A DNA stretch of 64,000 nt from a virus (IMGVR_UViG_3300037296_000046:11870-75869); one strand, 5' to 3'. Shown: positions 4,921-32,101, counted from the first letter of the stretch. Notes: a model not told the origin generated them from the sequence alone. Numbers and translations: made by a program.

Positions 4921-4933
4921 CATTAAACCCCTT

Positions 4934-4980
4934 GGGATAGCACATTTGATTTATATCATTTGTGCTATCCCTATTTTTTT
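4934..4980 (+). terminator. intrinsic terminator
   Basis: GGGATAGCACA/TGTGCTATCCC stem plus T-tract. Confidence 0.85.
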
Positions 4981-9696: not shown

Positions 9697-9920
9697 TGGC
9701 ACTACTATTGCCAAGAGATGTATATCTTGATGGCATGTCACCCCAGAAAGCCATTAGGGTACTAACAGATTTGATAAACCGAGTATCTCCTAGCGATAGG
9801 AGATACTTGTTTATTGAAGAATACGAAGACAGTCTTGGCGATCCATTTTGCCAAAACCCAACGAAATGCCTTCGGCTAATACTGAAAAAACCCTCTGTTC
9901 ATCAAGGAGAAAACCCATGA
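9696..9920 (+). CDS. small hypothetical protein
   Basis: TAATG and ATGA coupling on both sides. Confidence 0.45.
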   Translation: MALLLPRDVYLDGMSPQKAIRVLTDLINRVSPSDRRYLFIEEYEDSLGDPFCQNPTKCLRLILKKPSVHQGENP

Positions 9921-13263: not shown

Positions 13264-13282
13264 GACGTAGTACATTCTGAAG

Positions 13283-13316
13283 AAAAGAGGTGGGATAGTA
13301 TCCTGCCTCTTTTTTT
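13283..13316 (+). terminator. intrinsic terminator
   Basis: AGAGGTGGGA/TCCTGCCTCT stem plus T-tract. Confidence 0.8.
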
Positions 13317-22816: not shown

Positions 22817-22834
22817 GCTGATCACATTACATTT

Positions 22835-22868
22835 AAGCCCTCTAGTATTCGTACTAGGGGGCTTTTTT
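22835..22868 (+). terminator. intrinsic terminator
   Basis: AAGCCCTCTAGTA-TTCG-TACTAGGGGGCTT plus T-tract. Confidence 0.88.
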
Positions 22869-22920
22869 CGTCTGAGGGTATGGGGTAGGCACTAGCATCC
22901 TCCCATATATCGAGAAAAAC

Positions 22921-23112: not shown

Positions 23113-24426
23113 TTGATTGGAAAACACATGCCACTGAACTTAGGGCAGAAAAATGCCTCGACAGAGTGTCTCCAATTCCTACTGTCACCAGATAAAGAGT
23201 TTCGTATCGCTGGGCCAGCAGGAGTTGGTAAGACATTCATGTTGAAATACATCATGAATACATTGATCAAGCAGTACGAACAGACATGTAAACTTCTGGG
23301 CATCAAGCCTACTGAGTTTGACATTGCTCTTACTGCTACGACCAACAAAGCTGCTGAGGTGCTTGCCACTTCTACAGGATACCCAACCCAAACGATCCAT
23401 AGCTTTATGAATCTACGGGTATACGACGATTACTCTAGCGGAGTATCGAAGTGCAATAAGACCCGTTCATGGCATGTCCATCGTGAGACTATCATCTTCA
23501 TTGATGAAGCCTCTATGGTAGATGAGAACCTGTACAAGTTCCTCATGGAAGGTACTGATAAGACATGTAAAATCATCTACATCGGTGATCGTCACCAGTT
23601 GGCACCTGTCTTTGAGAAGGTGTCCAAGGTCTATGCTACTGATCATAACTTGGTCGAATTGACTGAGCCAGTACGCAATGCTGACCAGCCTGCGTTGATG
23701 AATCTGTGTGAGCAGTTCCGTGATACGGTTAAGACAGGGGTGTTTAAACCTATTGTCGAAGTTCCCGGAGTCATTGACTTCATTGATGATACCAAATTGG
23801 CTCAAATGTTGGATGTCACTCTGAAGCCTGAAGATGTGGATGCTCGTATCCTCATGTTCACCAATCAGCGTGTCCATGACTATAACGAATATCTTCGTGA
23901 AGTTCGTGGACATGGTAAGATGTTTGCCAAAGGTGAAATCTTGGTAAACAATGCCTCTGTGGAAATCAGTGACAAGATTCAATTGTCAGTAGAACAGCAA
24001 TTCTTAGTGCTACAAGCTGACACTGATGTTCGTGAGATTGTAGTATGCCGTAACGATAGTTCTATCGTAATGGACATCTACAAGATGCGGATCACCCATG
24101 CTACAAATCCAAATGGTGAAGGCTTTGATGTCCGTATCCCATACGACATGGAACACTACAAAAAGCTGATGAACTATTTCAGCAACAACAAGATGTGGCC
24201 AGATTTCTACAACCTTAAAAACAACTTTCCTGATCTACGGATGAAGGATGCCTCGACTGTCTATAAGGCTCAAGGCTCCACCTATGAATTCGTGATCCTA
24301 GACCTAACTAACATCGGTCTATGTAAGGATGCTGAACAAACAGCACGGATGCTCTACGTTGGCGTTTCTCGTCCAACCACACGCATTTTCCTTTACGGCA
24401 AGCTACCCCCTAAGTACGCTGGCTGA
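23113..24426 (+). CDS. SF1 (Dda/RecD-like) DNA helicase
   Basis: GPAGVGKT, IDEASM, GDRHQLAPV, TVYKAQGST, YVGVSR. Confidence 0.92.
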   Translation: MIGKHMPLNLGQKNASTECLQFLLSPDKEFRIAGPAGVGKTFMLKYIMNTLIKQYEQTCKLLGIKPTEFDIALTATTNKAAEVLATSTGYPTQTIHSFMNLRVYDDYSSGVSKCNKTRSWHVHRETIIFIDEASMVDENLYKFLMEGTDKTCKIIYIGDRHQLAPVFEKVSKVYATDHNLVELTEPVRNADQPALMNLCEQFRDTVKTGVFKPIVEVPGVIDFIDDTKLAQMLDVTLKPEDVDARILMFTNQRVHDYNEYLREVRGHGKMFAKGEILVNNASVEISDKIQLSVEQQFLVLQADTDVREIVVCRNDSSIVMDIYKMRITHATNPNGEGFDVRIPYDMEHYKKLMNYFSNNKMWPDFYNLKNNFPDLRMKDASTVYKAQGSTYEFVILDLTNIGLCKDAEQTARMLYVGVSRPTTRIFLYGKLPPKYAG

Positions 24427-24434
24427 ACAAGTTT

Positions 24435-24508
24435 GGTTCTATAGCTCAATTGGATAGAGCTTCCGCCTCCTAAGCGGGTCTGTGTGGGTTCGAGTCCTAC
24501 TAGAACCA
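24435..24508 (+). tRNA. tRNA-Arg (anticodon CCT), CCA not encoded
   Basis: cloverleaf folded by hand: GGTTCTA/TAGAACC acceptor, GCTC/GAGC D stem with A20, loop CT-CCT-AA, GGTTCGAGTCC T arm. Confidence 0.93.
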
Positions 24509-24510
24509 CC

Positions 24511-24714
24511 GGAGTACGCAGTGGACCTAAGTTGCCACTGTGTAAGGTCAGGAGCCACCCCCACGGGGCTTCCTGATTACACCCTGCTGTGACCCTTAGA
24601 AAAGGTTACAGCGTGGTGGGTAGAGCCTAGCTCAAGCCCACTGTAGGTGGCTGAGAAGCCGCAGAGAAGGATGAAAGACCTTCGCATCTAGGTGGAAACC
24701 CTAGAACCAACTCA
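24511..24714 (+). ncRNA. putative structured ncRNA (seven consecutive hairpins)
   Basis: no ORF in the track; stems with G-U pairs and GNRA/T-loop-like loops tile the interval. Confidence 0.65.
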
Positions 24715-24727
24715 TTAGGAGAGACAT

Positions 24728-25219
24728 ATGCGGACTTACATCGGCACTAAAATCATCAAAGCCAAACCCATGACACGGGCTGAATACAACACCTATCGTG
24801 GGTGGGATTTACCGGAGAATGAAAACGGCGATGATGGTGGTTATCTCGTTGAGTACGAAGCAGCACCAAATGTTGAGACAAATCATGTCGATCATGCGGG
24901 CTATATTTCGTGGTCCCCAGATTCCGTATTTGAGGAATCTTATCGTGGTCCGGGAACCATGAACTTCGGCCATGCTTTAGAGATTCTAAAGTCTGGTGGA
25001 CGCGTCAGCCGTCAAGGTTGGAACGGCAAGAACATGTTTATCTTCTTGGTAAACGGTTCAACTTTCACCGTAAATCGTGAGCCACTGCTTTCGATCCTAG
25101 GTGAAGGAACAGAGGTCAATTACCACGGCCATGTGGATATGAAGACCGCTGACGGCATGATCGTTCCATGGCTCTGCTCGCAAACTGATATGCTTGCAGA
25201 AGATTGGGGCATTGCCTGA
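24728..25219 (+). CDS. two-domain protein: YIGTK...YISWSP domain fused to DUF2829 (Tad2-like) domain
   Basis: C-terminal MNFGHALEILKSG.RVSR.GWNGK.MFIFLV...WLCSQTDMLAEDW; AGGAG RBS. Confidence 0.82.
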   Translation: MRTYIGTKIIKAKPMTRAEYNTYRGWDLPENENGDDGGYLVEYEAAPNVETNHVDHAGYISWSPDSVFEESYRGPGTMNFGHALEILKSGGRVSRQGWNGKNMFIFLVNGSTFTVNREPLLSILGEGTEVNYHGHVDMKTADGMIVPWLCSQTDMLAEDWGIA

Positions 25220-25223
25220 TCAA

Positions 25224-25257
25224 TGGGGCAGCGTGTTTACACGTTGTCCCAACCTTT
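25224..25257 (+). terminator. hairpin after the DUF2829 gene (terminator or processing stem)
   Basis: TGGGGCAGCGTG-TTTA-CACGTTGTCCCA 12-bp stem; weak T-tract. Confidence 0.5.
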
Positions 25258-25337
25258 GTCGGTGTCACTGTAAGTGATGAGTGGGGTTTGATCACCCTTG
25301 ATCAACTCAGCAGGTGGGAACCCTGCCACCGGCTCCA
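25258..25337 (+). ncRNA. tRNA-like RNA with encoded 3' CCA, non-canonical
   Basis: 7-bp GTCGGTG/CACCGGC acceptor plus T-CCA; 5-bp GCAGG/CCTGC T stem with 7-nt loop; two further arms. Confidence 0.7.
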
Positions 25338-25356
25338 TATTACAAATGAGGATGTT

Positions 25357-25854
25357 ATGAGACTTGATTATCTCAAGCTCATCCCCTCCCTGATCGCTTC
25401 GGTCATGGGACCGGAGAAAGCTCGTTTCAAAAAGCTACGCAGCAAATTAGTTGAGGATAACATGAAGTTAGGCGGTAACGTCCTTGGCTTCAGGCACCTT
25501 GGCTTGCGCTATAGCAACAACCATCCCCGCGATACCAAAGGTGTTCACTTGCCTGCTGTGGAACCATCCTTTAAGGGTGAGGTCCAGCGATTCGAGGCTC
25601 TTGTCCTACGGGCAGAACGTGATGAGCAGCGTCTTCGCCAGTCTCTCACAGTTGTTCTACCGATGTGTGAAAGCCTACAAGACATCCGTGATGTTTTGCC
25701 AGAGGTATTCGTAACCGAAATTACACAGCTAAGCTCTCTCGTAAGAACCAGAGAGGCAGGCTACATACTGAGGGAGCATCCAGTGTTAAAGACCCAATAC
25801 GATCAAGCTGTAGAGATTGCTCTATTCTACACCGTCAATCGTCTGGTATTTTAA
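25357..25854 (+). CDS. N4 gp38-like protein (Nmad5-like)
   Basis: GAGGA RBS before ATG 25357; size and position between helicase and polymerase; SLQDIRDVLPE motif. Confidence 0.7.
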   Translation: MRLDYLKLIPSLIASVMGPEKARFKKLRSKLVEDNMKLGGNVLGFRHLGLRYSNNHPRDTKGVHLPAVEPSFKGEVQRFEALVLRAERDEQRLRQSLTVVLPMCESLQDIRDVLPEVFVTEITQLSSLVRTREAGYILREHPVLKTQYDQAVEIALFYTVNRLVF

Positions 25855-28490
25855 TGAAGTATCTGACCTTTGGTAAGACTGAGGCTACTCAGTACAAGAT
25901 TGCGATCTTGGCATCATCCCTGAACACCGCACAGTTCAATACCCACTACATTGAACCATACATGGAAGACTTTCGGGATGATGTAATTGCATACAGTCTT
26001 CACAAGTCAGGTAAGAAAACCTCTGTGGCAACACAGAAGGAATACCTAGAAGACCTATTGCCTGTCCTCATGGACCTTGGTGTCAAATATCTAGTCGTCA
26101 CAGATGGCGAGTACTTTAAGACACTCACAAAATCCTCCACAATTGATGCTTCCATTGGCTACGTCATGGATTGCATCGTGGGGGATTTTAAAATCGTTTA
26201 TGCTCCTAACTATGCTCAGGTCTTCTACGATCCTGACAAAGTTAAAGTCAAAATGGAACGTGGTTTCTCTGCTCTCAAGGATCATATGGCTGGCACCTAT
26301 GTCGATCCCGGAGATAGCATCATCCACTATGCTGATTATCCCAAGACACCTACTGAGATTAAAGCATGGCTGGACAAGCTCTTAGAGCTAAACCTACCCC
26401 TCACTGCTGACATCGAAGGCTTCTCCCTGAAGCACTATGATAGTGGCATTGGTTCCATTACATTCTGCTGGGGTAAGAATGAGGGTATCGCCTTCCCTAT
26501 TGATATTCGTGAAGCCTATGGACCTCTGAAACAGGGTCAAAAGCTAGAGCGATTTCATAACACAGAAGTGCGAGCACTTCTCAAGGATTTCTTTTTGAAA
26601 TTCAAGAACAAACTGATCTGGCATAACATTTCCTTTGACGTATACATTCTGGTTTACCAGTTGTTTATGGATCACCTTCTGGACACCGAAGGTCTACTAG
26701 AGGGAATGGATGTACTTCTTAACAATTGGGAATGTACTAAGCTAATCACCTACTTAGCTACGAATTCCTGTGCAGGAAACAAGCTGGGCCTCAAGTCTCA
26801 GTCACATGAATATGCAGGCAATTACGCAGTTGAAGACATCAAAGACATCACCAAGATACCCATTGATGAGTTGCTAGAATACAACTTGATCGACGGTCTA
26901 TCCACATGGTTCACCTACGATAAGCACTACGATACGATGATCGCTGACCAGCAAGAATCTATCTATGTGGACATCTTCAAGAAGTCGATCTTGGAGATTA
27001 TCCAGATGCAGCTAACAGGCTTGCCTGTTGATATGGCTCAGGTGATTAAGACATCTGACATTCTGGATGGTGAGAATAACATCGTCAAATCTAAGATGAT
27101 GAATTCGATGGTCGTCCAAGGGTTCACTCCCTACCTTCGTCAGAAGTGGATGGACACCATGCACTCTAAGTGGAAGGTGAAACGGATCACATTGGCTGAG
27201 GTTCCTGTTCGTAAGGAAACCACCTTCAATCCCGGCAGTCCTGTACAGCTTCAGAAGCTCCTCTTTGATGAGGACTTTATGGGTCTACCTGTTCTTGAAC
27301 TTACCGACTCCAAACAACCAGCTACAGGTGGTGATGTCTTAGAGAAGCTCAAGAACCATACGACCAACCCAGAATACCTAGCTTTTCTAGATTATCTGAT
27401 TGAGTACAAGACCCTCGCAATCATCATCAGCACCTTCATTCCAGCCCTCAAGAACGCCTCTCTGGCTCCTGATGGGTGGCACTACATGTTTGGCAGCTTC
27501 AACCTAGGAGGCACGCTCTCAGCCCGTCTGAGCAGCAGTAATCCTAACCTGCAAAACATTCCTGCCTCTGGTGCAACCAAGGCTAAGCAACGCTTGGCCA
27601 AGATGATCAAGAAGTGCATCAAAGCCCCTCCGGGCTGGCTTTTCGTGGGTTTAGATTTCTCGTCACTGGAAGACAGAATATCTGCCGTTACAACCCGTGA
27701 TCCAATGAAGCTGAAGGTCTACACCGATGGCTTCGATGGTCACTGTCTTCGGGCATATGCTTACTTCAGTGATCAGATGCCTGACATCATTGGGGATAGT
27801 GTCAAATCTATCAACTCTATTTCCAAGATGTATAAGCACCTTCGTCAGATCAGCAAGGCTCCAACTTTTGCCCTGACATACCAAGGCACCTATCACACGC
27901 TCATGGCTAACTGTGGGTTCAGTGAGGAACTGGCTAAGGCAATCGAGGCTAGTTACCACAAGCTGTACGTTGTCTCTGACGAGTGGGTGGCTGACAAGCT
28001 GAAGCAGGCAAGCAAAGACGGTTATATCACGGCAGCATTTGGTCTGCGTGTTCGTACCCCCTTGCTCAAGCAGGTGATTCTTGGCACCAAGTCCACTCCG
28101 TTCGAGGCAGCAGCCGAGGGACGGACAGCAGGTAACGCTCTGGGGCAGTCATGGGGTTTGCTCAACAACCGAGCAGCTTCAGAGTTTATGGCTAAGGTCC
28201 GTAAGAGCAAATACCGTCTGACAATACGTCCCTGTGCTCATATCCATGATGCTCAGTATTATATCATCAAGGATGATCTAGAGCATGTAGAATGGATGAA
28301 TACTCATCTCGTAAAAGCAGTCCAATGGCAGGAGCATCCTGACATTGCTAACGATGATGTGAAATTGGGTGGAGAACTTTCGATCTTCTATCCAGACTGG
28401 TCAGTAGAATTGGAAATTCCCAATGGTGCAGATCAGAATAAAATATCTGAAATGGCTGAACAGCATTACTTAGAGAAATGCGCAGCTTAA
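25854..28490 (+). CDS. family A DNA polymerase (N4 gp39-like)
   Basis: exonuclease DIE; RLSSSNPNLQN; motif A DFSSLEDR, B RQISKAPTFALTY, C IHDA. Confidence 0.96.
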   Translation: MKYLTFGKTEATQYKIAILASSLNTAQFNTHYIEPYMEDFRDDVIAYSLHKSGKKTSVATQKEYLEDLLPVLMDLGVKYLVVTDGEYFKTLTKSSTIDASIGYVMDCIVGDFKIVYAPNYAQVFYDPDKVKVKMERGFSALKDHMAGTYVDPGDSIIHYADYPKTPTEIKAWLDKLLELNLPLTADIEGFSLKHYDSGIGSITFCWGKNEGIAFPIDIREAYGPLKQGQKLERFHNTEVRALLKDFFLKFKNKLIWHNISFDVYILVYQLFMDHLLDTEGLLEGMDVLLNNWECTKLITYLATNSCAGNKLGLKSQSHEYAGNYAVEDIKDITKIPIDELLEYNLIDGLSTWFTYDKHYDTMIADQQESIYVDIFKKSILEIIQMQLTGLPVDMAQVIKTSDILDGENNIVKSKMMNSMVVQGFTPYLRQKWMDTMHSKWKVKRITLAEVPVRKETTFNPGSPVQLQKLLFDEDFMGLPVLELTDSKQPATGGDVLEKLKNHTTNPEYLAFLDYLIEYKTLAIIISTFIPALKNASLAPDGWHYMFGSFNLGGTLSARLSSSNPNLQNIPASGATKAKQRLAKMIKKCIKAPPGWLFVGLDFSSLEDRISAVTTRDPMKLKVYTDGFDGHCLRAYAYFSDQMPDIIGDSVKSINSISKMYKHLRQISKAPTFALTYQGTYHTLMANCGFSEELAKAIEASYHKLYVVSDEWVADKLKQASKDGYITAAFGLRVRTPLLKQVILGTKSTPFEAAAEGRTAGNALGQSWGLLNNRAASEFMAKVRKSKYRLTIRPCAHIHDAQYYIIKDDLEHVEWMNTHLVKAVQWQEHPDIANDDVKLGGELSIFYPDWSVELEIPNGADQNKISEMAEQHYLEKCAA

Positions 28491-29839: not shown

Positions 29840-31970
29840 TCTAGAAACGATTGACCATCACCCTGCGATTGAGGAAATCGTGGACGTGATGTGCAACAAG
29901 ACCCAGAACACTGATCGGGGTTTCTTCCGTGTAGAGGTGGCCTATTTTCTTGCGAAGATGGCCGCTTCTATGCGTTCTGAGATTCTGACTAAGGATCGGG
30001 GCAACATCCCTGTGAACGTCTATGCTCTTGCCATGGCTACATCTGGCTTTGGTAAGGGTCACAGTGTTCACATCATGGAAGAACAATTCATGAAGGGTTT
30101 CAAACGCCGTTTCATGGAGGATACATTTCCAACTATTGCTGACACTCATCTGTGGAAGCTGGCATTTCAACGTGCTGGCACAAACGGTACTGAGGAGCAG
30201 GAAGAACGGGATAAGCTAGAGAAAGAGTTTATCCAAGCTGGTGCATTGCCCTTCACTTTTGATAGTGGCACTGGTCCTGCCGTGAAGCAGCTTCGTCAGA
30301 AGTTGATGCTGGCAGACTGTGGGGCTGTGAACCTACAGATTGACGAGATTGGCTCTAACCTTGTCGGTAACGTCGAGGTTCTGACCATGTTCTTGGAGCT
30401 ATACGATCAAGGCTTGGTCAAACAGAAGCTCGTCAAGAACACCCATGACAACCAACGTGGGCAAGAGATGGATGGTAAGACACCAACCAACGCATTGCTC
30501 TTTGGCACCCCTTCTAAGCTCTTGGATGGGGGTCAGACTGAAGACCAGTTCTACTCCTTCCTTGAGACAGGCTACGCTCGTCGTTGTCTCTTTGGGTGGG
30601 GTGAGCATATCCCCTCTGAAATCGAACTGACACCCAAGGAGGTCTACGAACGCCTGATTGACACAGGTAACGTGACCACTGTGGACCGTTGGTCAGATCA
30701 CTTCGCTTTACTTGCTGACAGCACCAAATTTGGCTGGCAGATGAGTGTGAGCGATGAGGTAGGTGTTGCTCTCATCACCTATAAAATCCAGTGTGAGAAG
30801 CTGGCTGCCACCTACGCAGAGCATGAGGACATTCGTAAAGCTGAGATGTCACACCGATATTTCAAATGCCTTAAACTAGCAGGTGCGTTTGCCTTCGTGG
30901 ATCAATCATCTGACATTACGCTAGACCATCTCTACTCGTCCATGAAACTGGTCGAGGAGTCTGGCATAAGTTTCCAGCGATTGCTGACACGGGAAAAGAC
31001 CTACGTTAAATTGGCTAAGTTTATCGCATCCTCTACGGATGAATTGACCCATGCTGATCTACACGAAGCTCTGCCTTTCTATAAGTCCAGTCAATCTGCT
31101 CGTAATGAGATGATGACCATGGCTACTGCATGGGGCTACAAACAGCATATCGTCATCAAGAAGACATTCTTGGATGGTATCGAATTCTTCACAGGGGAAA
31201 CCCTTGAGGAAACTAATCTGGATGAGATGCTTATCAGTTACTCTGATAACTTCGCGTTCAACTATTCATTCGAGCGTCAGCCAATGAGTAGTATGCACCT
31301 ATTGACCCAATCCGTTGGGAACCATTGGTGTAATCACGGTTTCTCTAACAACCACCGTTCCGAGGAAAATGTAGTTCCCGGCTTTAACATAGTGGTTATT
31401 GACTGTGATGGTGGTGTCCAATTGTCGTTGGTCCATGAGCTTCTCAAAGAGTATGAGTTCATGACATACACCACTAAGAGCCATACTGAGGCAGAGAATC
31501 GGTTCCGACTGATGATCCCTATTAGCTATGTCCTTGAGTTGGATCGTGATGACTATAAAGAATTCATGAACAACATTATGGATTGGCTACCATTTCCTTC
31601 TGATGAAGCCGCTAACCAGCGATCTAAGAAATGGGAAACCTATTCAGGTGGCAAATACTCCGTGAACCATGGTGAGCTACTCGACCCTTTGAAGTTTGTA
31701 CCAAAGACCTCAAAGAACGAGCAGCACCGTACATCCATGACCAAGCTGGAAAGCCTAGACAACTTCGAGCGTTGGTTCGCATCACGGATTGCTAACGGCA
31801 ACCGTAACAACCAGATGATCAAGTTTGCATTAGCCCTTGTAGATCAAGGACTTAACTACAACGATGTCGAGAGTTGTGTCGTCAGTTTCAACAATAAGTT
31901 GGCCGATGGGCTGACTGAGACTGAGCTACGGAGCACCATCCTACAGACTGTTGCCAAGAAGTTTAGCTAG
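29826..31970 (+). CDS. DNA primase (N4 gp43-like)
   Basis: SGFGKG P-loop, DCD and YTTKSH...RFR motifs, C-terminal GNRNN (PriCT-like). Confidence 0.85.
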   Translation: MSLPDLETIDHHPAIEEIVDVMCNKTQNTDRGFFRVEVAYFLAKMAASMRSEILTKDRGNIPVNVYALAMATSGFGKGHSVHIMEEQFMKGFKRRFMEDTFPTIADTHLWKLAFQRAGTNGTEEQEERDKLEKEFIQAGALPFTFDSGTGPAVKQLRQKLMLADCGAVNLQIDEIGSNLVGNVEVLTMFLELYDQGLVKQKLVKNTHDNQRGQEMDGKTPTNALLFGTPSKLLDGGQTEDQFYSFLETGYARRCLFGWGEHIPSEIELTPKEVYERLIDTGNVTTVDRWSDHFALLADSTKFGWQMSVSDEVGVALITYKIQCEKLAATYAEHEDIRKAEMSHRYFKCLKLAGAFAFVDQSSDITLDHLYSSMKLVEESGISFQRLLTREKTYVKLAKFIASSTDELTHADLHEALPFYKSSQSARNEMMTMATAWGYKQHIVIKKTFLDGIEFFTGETLEETNLDEMLISYSDNFAFNYSFERQPMSSMHLLTQSVGNHWCNHGFSNNHRSEENVVPGFNIVVIDCDGGVQLSLVHELLKEYEFMTYTTKSHTEAENRFRLMIPISYVLELDRDDYKEFMNNIMDWLPFPSDEAANQRSKKWETYSGGKYSVNHGELLDPLKFVPKTSKNEQHRTSMTKLESLDNFERWFASRIANGNRNNQMIKFALALVDQGLNYNDVESCVVSFNNKLADGLTETELRSTILQTVAKKFS

Positions 31971-32101
31971 TATCTAACTAGCAAAACTGGTAGTATCTGT
32001 GGACTATCTTAGGGCTATTTGATTCGGTTTTTCGGGTATTACAATTCCCGTTTAAATCGGATTTGATAGCCCTTTCACACCCTGTCGAGAGAGCACACCA
32101 T

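Follow-up and report, generated by a model that had tools for sequence, protein, structure and literature searches.

Phages encode RNase P substrates that are not tRNAs, among them the C4 antisense RNA of P1 and P7, the M3 RNA of phi80 and the stable RNAs beside the tRNA cluster of T4, all of them small and matured by host RNase P via an acceptor-like helix with a 3' CCA-type end. RNase P binds the stack formed by the T stem-loop and the acceptor stem and measures a fixed distance from the elbow (PMC4919913), and in plant mitochondria non-canonical tRNA-like t-elements direct mRNA end formation (PMC1920247). In M. smegmatis, YrlA is an RNase P substrate with a CCA and an acceptor stem of 7 bp, and RNAs resembling YrlA are encoded by 22 phages (PMC4201824). 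RNase E cuts after encoded CCA (PMC2190699).

Here we describe a tRNA-shaped element (25258-25337) with an encoded CCA and no anticodon arm, which lies between an anti-defence-type gene and the replication genes of a phage. We argue that it is probably a small RNA module and tentatively propose that it serves as an RNA-processing signal. The window analysed, 64,000 nt in full, spans 11870-75869 in a virus record that is 75,869 bp long and has direct terminal repeats; positions are counted from its first base.

Results

Genomic context of the element

We assign the phage to the N4-like phages (Schitoviridae) on the strength of protein similarity, because its family-A DNA polymerase is 58% identical to the polymerases of Sinorhizobium phage ort11 and Escherichia phage N4. 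Among the public runs checked for the region, the sole carrier was one salt-lake DNA metagenome, with no RNA run listed, and this metagenome is probably the source run of the phage. In ort11, RHph_X2_28B and two IMG/VR relatives (L002 and L004), the gp38-like gene follows the helicase after ~10 nt and the insertion is absent. Because the two genes nearly abut in these relatives, the tRNA-Arg gene, the U spacer, the Tad2-like gene and the element together form a lineage-specific insertion of ~930 nt (24427-25356), and since the relatives carry none at the same locus, there is no orthologous spacer to align. The helicase/gp38 junction is a hot spot.

Table 1 Features of the locus and of the tRNA-shaped element; positions refer to the window unless a contig is named
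Feature	Position	Strand	Evidence or remark
Dda-like helicase	23113-24426		
tRNA-Arg(CCU)	24435-24510	+	ARAGORN; Rfam RF00005, 62 bits; first element of the cassette and the only tRNA of the genome
U spacer, non-coding, seven hairpins, 5' UTR of the Tad2-like gene	24511-24727 (217 nt)	+	
hpA partial paralog	24638-24650	+	within the U spacer
hpB partial paralog	24688-24704	+	within the U spacer
Two-domain Tad2-like (DUF2829) gene	24728-25219	+	Pfam PF11195, E 2.8e-25; phrog_872
Spacer with the tRNA-shaped element	25220-25356 (137 nt)		
H0, 12-bp hairpin, UUUA loop, two G-U pairs	25224-25251	+	-20.4 kcal/mol, z -6.2
Acceptor-like 5' strand GTCGGTG	25258-25264	+	sequence, MFE; second-contig homology begins exactly at 25258
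hpA, D-position hairpin TCAC-TGTAA-GTGA	25265-25277	+	or 5 bp with a 3-nt loop
Central domain replacing the anticodon arm, TGAGT/ACTCA (25278-25282/25305-25309)	25278-25309	+	variable part of the element
hpB, T-like arm GCAGG-TGGGAAC-CCTGC	25310-25326	+	flush with the acceptor
Acceptor-like 3' strand CACCGGC, discriminator U25334, CCA 25335-25337, UAU trailer	25327-25340	+	second-contig homology stops at 25340
gp38-like gene (phrog_4881)	25357-25854	+	stop codon overlaps the DNA polymerase start
DNA polymerase, family A	25854-28490		
tRNAs beside Tad2-like genes in other contigs	L141 88-173 (behind the Tad2-like gene); L148; L045 1363-1437; L042 2165-2426; L038/L039/L041 887-973		

The GC3 of the Tad2-like gene (0.49) matches that of its neighbours (0.49-0.53) in a genome that is 94% coding, and the insertion is therefore not very recent, its spacers having been retained for some time. 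Its Tad2-like protein has 2,392 homologs with up to 76% identity. A search of 5.8 billion proteins gave a single homolog (43%) of the gp38-like protein, and there is therefore no close relative of the phage at hand. The Tad2-like protein carries an extra N-terminal domain of ~75 aa, phrog_872 spans both domains, and the two-domain form is common. The phage genome holds no gene for a CCA-adding enzyme or for tRNA repair, and the Ro60/TROVE gene (PF05731) is absent from its 75.9 kb.

A stop-free frame starting at 25204 runs through the element into the gp38-like gene. We rejected a coding extension of this gene because the PHROG profile phrog_4881 aligns from residue 57 of the longer frame, the gp38-like relatives are 162-163 aa long, and the ATG at 25357, which we take as the true start, is preceded by a GAGGA box (25348-25352). 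On this comparative evidence the 5' extension is an artefact of the stop-free frame, and because the gp38-like gene begins at 25357 the element lies in a true non-coding spacer. The preliminary description, drawn from the sequence alone, had held that the element is concealed within a falsely extended reading frame, and the profile alignment, the length of the relatives and the ribosome-binding-site-backed ATG all agree with it. Extended reading-frame calls can thus conceal tRNA-shaped elements of this kind.

Anatomy and predicted fold

The minimum-free-energy (MFE) structure of the 80-mer computed by RNAfold is exactly a four-way tRNA-like fold (-31.1 kcal/mol), which persists in a 161-nt context. 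Its acceptor-like stem joins 25258-25264 to 25327-25333 by 7 bp (G-C, U-G, C-G, G-C, G-C, U-A and G-C), and the base preceding G25258 is a U (U-1). The D-position hairpin hpA joins the acceptor directly, with no U8/N9 linker and no GG in its loop. The loop of the T-like arm, UGGGAAC, retains G53-C61, U54, R57 and A58 and has GG at positions 55/56. Because of this GG, and because the D-position loop lacks its own, the elbow at which RNase P docks is not predicted. In the central domain, the inner helices are alternatives, GGGGT/ACCCT or TTGATCA/TGATCAA.

Most of this architecture had been anticipated: the top-half geometry of a tRNA with an encoded CCA was borne out, every pair described being present in the sequence and in agreement with the MFE structure, and the sequence likewise confirms inner arms that are non-canonical (no linker, no D-loop GG, no 7-nt anticodon loop). 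The proposal that TGAGT/ACTCA encloses TTGATCA/TGATCAA stood in part; the pairs are present, but the two arms overlap, the TGAGT/ACTCA stem and the TGATCAA arm having one A in common. In a 400-nt context the pairing probability was ~0.4 for the acceptor, ~0.35 for the T-like arm and ~0.6 for hpA; the TTGATCA/TGATCAA hairpin was dominant (p ~0.8), the TGAGT/ACTCA stem was weak (p ~0.1), and the four-way fold as a whole had a probability of about 0.35-0.45.

Hairpin H0 sits directly behind the stop codon of the Tad2-like gene and ends 6 nt upstream of the element, with no U-run behind it. At the other end, the spacer MFE structure pairs the UCC of the UCCA tail (from 25334) with the GGA of the gp38-like Shine-Dalgarno box (to 25352), and on this model an uncut transcript might partly mask the gp38-like ribosome-binding site. 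The motif TGATCA occurs three times in 90 nt (25218, 25289 and 25299; range 25217-25305), with a TTGATTA inside the gp38-like gene (25364-25370); such repeats might offer alternative pairings in the RNA, serve as Dam-type GATC sites or bind a protein.

Folding statistics and chance expectation

We scanned both strands for a 7-bp stem (at most one G-U pair), a flush hairpin of 5 bp with a 7-nt loop, and NCCA, in a total of 66-95 nt. This combination is expected 0.1 times per shuffled genome (both strands), and the real genome contains two matches. The second (minus strand, 998-1083) lies opposite an open reading frame (955-1206) in antisense orientation, is AT-rich and unstructured (fold z -0.3), and we attribute it to chance. 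The 80-mer alone folds with an MFE z of -1.8 to -2.1 against shuffles. Considered alone, then, the tRNA resemblance of the element is suggestive at best, and these figures are what speaks for a chance resemblance in a hairpin-rich spacer: one in ten shuffled genomes yields a match, the other match in this genome is clearly fortuitous, and the z-score is near -2. The non-coding location of the element speaks against such a coincidence, as do the homologies described below, and we regard it as very improbable.

The 137-nt spacer containing the element folds with a z of -3.75 on the + strand vs -1.07 on the - strand. The U spacer has an MFE of -90.5 kcal/mol (z -5.7 by the tool's own shuffles; + strand -5.5 vs - strand -2.7). 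Among 2,164 genome windows, the U spacer ranked 11th and the element's spacer 17th, and the windows that fold better than both are mostly terminators, with a long G+C hairpin and a T run; the intergenic ones among them are of this kind. Textbook intrinsic terminators are numerous in the genome and mostly on the + strand (22834-22870, 13280-13312, 4933-4975, 9782-9812, 31940-32075 and others). No intrinsic terminator, defined by a G+C-rich hairpin and a T run, was called at 24300-25600, and a terminator reading of the element was discarded because there is no T run here. A scan for sigma-70-like promoters gave none in the element's spacer. We also rejected a DNA hairpin promoter of the N4 virion-polymerase type, because the G-U pairs and the strand asymmetry indicate RNA and the region is not early.

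Tests against tRNA and other RNA families

ARAGORN, run with default settings, with -ps or with -i, made no call on the element and found only the tRNA-Arg gene. The element was called only at -ps60 (five calls in 350 nt) or with -mt -ps (three calls in 350 nt), and we set these relaxed calls aside as tRNA evidence because they come amid several noise calls within the same 350 nt. Rfam searches at E<=10 of a 1.2-kb region, of 146 nt and of the whole genome gave no tRNA, tmRNA, Y RNA or other plausible family for the element; it falls short of the RF00005 gathering score of 29 bits, the weakest matches listed in the 146-nt search having ~11 bits and tRNA-Arg 62 bits. That ARAGORN would pass over the element had been foreseen in the preliminary description. 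With tRNA it shares the 7-bp acceptor, the discriminator, the CCA and a flush 5-bp T stem with a 7-nt loop; it lacks U8, G18G19 (the D-position loop is UGUAA), psi55 C56 and a 7-nt anticodon loop with U33, its central arm having a 22-nt interior instead. The element is not a tRNA.

Other families fit no better. Neither ARAGORN nor Rfam points to a tmRNA, with its tRNA-like domain and tag reading frame, and a YrlA model match and a nearby TROVE gene, the marks of a Y RNA, are both absent. The T-arm motif of t-elements, GGTTCRANYCC, is replaced by GCAGGTGGGAACCCTGC. Of the three functions suggested in the preliminary description, that of an aminoacyl carrier is the least likely and we consider it unlikely, because there are no recognisable identity elements (no G3-U70, no anticodon, no long variable arm); the lack of elbow pairs between the D and T loops also counts against it.

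A decaying tRNA pseudogene from a former phage tRNA cluster would retain a four-arm layout and CCA, as the element does, and a real tRNA lies 750 nt away; elsewhere, tRNAs stand directly downstream of Tad2-like genes (L141, L148). Decay, however, predicts broken stems with surviving loop bases, and the element shows the opposite: every stem is perfect, whereas U8, G18G19, U33, psi55 and C56, all universal in tRNA, are lost. There is, moreover, no tRNA match at E<=10 and no similarity to tRNA-Arg beyond the T-like arm, which makes a pseudogene highly implausible.

A partial paralog in the U spacer

Two hairpin cores of the element recur upstream of the Tad2-like gene. The core CACTGTARGTG has exact matches in the genome only at 24639-24649 and 25266, and the core AGGTGGRAACCCT only at 24690-24702 and 25312. 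Both keep one order in the U spacer and in the element, and such a collinear pair arose in 0 of 400 shuffles. The outer pairs of hpA change from C-CAC...GUG-G in the U spacer to U-CAC...GUG-A in the element (C-G to U-A), and those of hpB from CU-AGG...CCU-AG to GC-AGG...CCU-GC (C-G/U-A to G-C/C-G), differences that, as judged from two sequences, appear compensatory. The U-spacer copies have no in-register acceptor closure and no CCA, and the hairpins can therefore exist outside the tRNA-like frame. The U spacer as a whole had no Rfam match and no homolog in the collections searched, and a group I intron or a HEARO/omega-type RNA was dismissed for want of an Rfam match. Once the tRNA is excised, its hairpin array could protect the Tad2-like mRNA at the 5' end.

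The same recurrence can be read as a pair of protein-binding hairpins, with hpA and hpB acting as loop-specific operators for an RNA-binding regulator, or as decay barriers, in the 5' UTRs of the Tad2-like and gp38-like/polymerase genes and the tRNA likeness incidental. Conserved loops and inner stems with covarying outer pairs are consistent with this, as are the position of hpB 24 nt (Tad2-like) and 31 nt (gp38-like) upstream of the start codons, the U copy without acceptor closure, and the MFE pairing of the NCCA tail with the Shine-Dalgarno box. We nevertheless think it quite unlikely, since it leaves unexplained why the homologous block in a second contig (below) spans the acceptor 5' end to just past the CCA, as well as a closing stem with NCCA that is rarely expected by chance, and no candidate binding protein presents itself.

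The U spacer also holds traces of the neighbouring tRNA gene. The 9-mer CTAGAACCA near the 3' end of tRNA-Arg (24500-24508) recurs at the end of the U spacer (24701-24709), and in our own alignment, which needs a single 3-nt gap, the U-spacer hpB agrees with the T arm and 3' end of tRNA-Arg at 14 positions out of 20; the distal U-spacer hairpin could be a diverged copy of the tRNA-Arg T arm, left by duplication or as an att-like scar. The heptamer CCACCGG is common to the tRNA-Arg trailer and the element's 3' strand. Owing to the recurrence of the 9-mer, the tRNA leader with the 5' acceptor strand (24430-24441) can pair with the distal copy (24702-24712) over 11 bp with one bulged U, a pairing that would enclose tRNA-Arg and the hairpin array.

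These repeats speak for a recombination relic or the border of a mobile cassette, in which a duplication derived from the tRNA 3' end arose at cassette assembly and is now a crossover site without RNA function, comparable to att-type repeats or to the repeated regulatory cassettes of T4-type phages. That the Tad2-like gene lies between direct repeats of the hairpin cores, that a second copy lies in different flanks and that the relatives lack the whole insertion would all accord with such an origin. Cassettes of that repeated regulatory kind (promoter plus stem-loop) would be present in many copies, each with a promoter; here the genome shows two partial copies. A relic leaves unexplained, however, the perfect 7-bp closing stem (~0.01 by chance given the 3' half, by our own estimate), the four uninterrupted helices, the compensatory outer pairs, the strand asymmetry, and the unrelated hairpin that the second copy has at an equal offset. 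In addition, this is an N4-like phage, the region showed no integrase, and the composition of the cassette has ameliorated. We judge a relic unlikely.

A second copy in the source metagenome

When contigs of the source run were compared with 23900-25900 of the window at a likeness of at least 80%, a 539-nt contig matched 25258-25340 only, with eight substitutions and three one-nucleotide insertions (~87% identity; E far below 1e-10 by our own estimate) and a depth of 51.5 vs 55.8 for the phage. The match extends from the first base of the predicted acceptor stem to 3 nt past the CCA, delimiting a discrete unit of ~83 nt, and the flanks are unalignable. An unrelated hairpin (-14.1 kcal/mol, z -4.2) occupies the 30 nt before the copy and ends 5 nt upstream of it. 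Five of the six located changes (three one-nucleotide insertions and two substitutions) fall within 25282-25298 in the central domain, where, on reading by hand, both alternative inner helices can still pair. The sixth, G25310>A, hits the first T-stem pair and would break it unless compensated. The remaining five substitutions lie, without a given position, in the terminal 30 nt on either side, so that this reading of the pairing covers the inner helices.

The N-terminus of a Tad2-like protein, similar to those of the phage and of P0005, is encoded on a 976-nt contig of identical depth. A second genome therefore probably carries the same pair of Tad2-like gene and element, which may be adjacent. 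The recurrence of the hairpin cores in the U spacer, together with a second contig that matches the element and nothing else, raises its standing, and on this comparative evidence the element is probably a real small RNA module. A homology that ends at the predicted ends and compensatory differences from the paralog give substance to its original portrayal as a non-canonical, tRNA-shaped, CCA-ended unit. Chance, by contrast, accounts neither for homology confined to the element nor for the significant partial paralogy, nor for a layout of hairpin followed by element in both copies.

Searches at other Tad2-like loci and in other collections

Across 160 Tad2-like loci from viral and metagenome collections, there was no blastn or nhmmer match to either spacer and no hairpin with a TGGRAAC loop. 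Downstream of 112 other Tad2-like genes we found no such element, the tRNA-shaped matches being real tRNAs (Leu in L141, Met in L148). Pattern scans of IMG/VR, the JGI metagenome collection and GTDB genomes, using T-arm plus acceptor, two-core and stem-tolerant T-arm plus NCCA patterns as well as the flank and the central segment of the second copy, returned no copy save two chance coding matches, and GenBank phages gave only chance matches of 23-26 nt to the element. The closest Tad2-like gene within reach (L087, 72%) is tightly packed, without spacers. The known copies of the element number two, both in one sample.

Several phage contigs, unrelated to one another, have real tRNA genes (for Leu, Met, Thr and Tyr, and a Leu-Leu-Cys cluster) directly adjoining Tad2-like genes, and Tad2-like genes tend towards tRNA or accessory regions.

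Proposed mechanism

We tentatively favour a model, although we would stop short of calling it probable, in which the element is a discrete tRNA-shaped processing module whose cleavage by RNase P between U25257 and G25258 would separate the tRNA-Arg/Tad2-like cassette from the gp38-like and polymerase genes. Among the three functions originally suggested, an RNase P/Z processing signal fits the anatomy best, because the element combines a 7+5-bp stack with U-1, G1-C72 and NCCA, and both copies have a protective hairpin upstream. Several features weaken this reading: the elbow pairs are missing, the four-way fold is not dominant in the ensemble, the 80-mer alone folds only ~2 sd better than shuffles, the U-spacer hairpins have no acceptor closure, and the copies are two, with no such element at the other Tad2-like loci examined.

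The element lies at the 3' border of the insertion and, on this model, would be part of a polycistronic + strand transcript. Host RNase P would read the acceptor-like stem stacked on the T-like arm, along with U-1, G1-C72 and UCCA, and cut 5' of G25258. This would place the 3' end of the Tad2-like mRNA 6 nt past H0, which could shield it against 3' exonucleases. The AU-rich trailer behind the CCA would be cut and trimmed as in a tRNA; it resembles the places where RNase E cuts after an encoded CCA (PMC2190699). Trailer cleavage would separate off a gp38-like/polymerase mRNA that still has its complete Shine-Dalgarno box, and release an 80-nt CCA-ended RNA that may have a role of its own.

Such a role underlies the third suggestion, a decoy. 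In the form considered here, the released CCA-ended acceptor-arm mimic would sequester a protein that recognises the 3' ends or acceptor stems of tRNAs, be it a nuclease or nucleotidyltransferase of a defence system or a tRNA enzyme of the host, and together with the Tad2-like sponge it would make up a mobile, two-part counter-defence cassette. The element is a discrete unit, ~87% conserved in unrelated flanks and probably again beside a Tad2-like gene; it lacks anticodon and elbow but has an intact acceptor, T-like arm and CCA, and the accessory insertion that contains it also contains tRNA-Arg and a gene of anti-defence type. Set against this, no other Tad2-like locus carries the element, the copies are two, no target is known, the structure is thermodynamically modest, and the phage has no tRNA-repair or CCA-adding gene that would hint at tRNA warfare. 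We find a decoy rather unlikely, and a shade more doubtful is the specific proposal that an anticodon-less, CCA-ended acceptor-arm mimic and a Tad2-like sponge form a protein-plus-RNA counter-defence cassette against enzymes that attack tRNA 3' ends or acceptor stems.

Discussion

The element defines a small RNA family, with two members at present, that is invisible to tRNA finders and to Rfam. If RNase P cuts it, a lytic phage would be insulating an acquired accessory cassette from an essential replication operon by means of a tRNA-shaped element that is not a tRNA, a form of insulation known from organelles and hardly described in phages. If the released RNA has a target of its own, it would be an RNA partner for a Tad2-like anti-defence gene.

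Compared with canonical tRNA (RF00005), the element has the same 7-bp acceptor, discriminator, CCA and 5-bp T stem with 7-nt loop, retains G53-C61, U54 and A58, and arranges four helices around one junction, but it lacks the linkers, the D-loop GG and the 7-nt anticodon loop and has G55 G56. The tRNA-like domain of tmRNA likewise lacks an anticodon arm and has a CCA, a T arm and an acceptor stem; the present element, in contrast, shows neither a tag reading frame nor pseudoknots nor G3-U70, its T loop is non-canonical, and ARAGORN and Rfam are negative. YrlA and the bacterial Y RNAs (PMC4201824) are tRNA mimics without an anticodon arm, as the element is; YrlA, however, has canonical D- and T-loop bases and a Ro60 (TROVE) gene no more than 4 kb away, whereas the element has no Rfam match, TROVE gene or Ro-binding stem. 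To the C4, M3 and T4 stable RNAs it shows no sequence or Rfam relationship, and their function in antisense repression has no visible counterpart here.

The t-elements (PMC1920247), like the present element, are non-canonical, cloverleaf-like and located in mRNA precursors beside coding regions, often next to stem-loops; RNase P and RNase Z cut at their ends and so liberate a small tRNA-like RNA. They have the canonical GGTTCRANYCC and receive CCA later, whereas the phage element has a TGGGAAC loop and an encoded CCA, and its predicted ends are supported by the limits of homology. In its proposed mode of action it would come closest to t-elements and to the tRNA-like domains of YrlA and tmRNA, yet it departs from each on defining features. 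We therefore place it as an orphan family of two members from one sample, of the tRNA-like processing or mimic kind.
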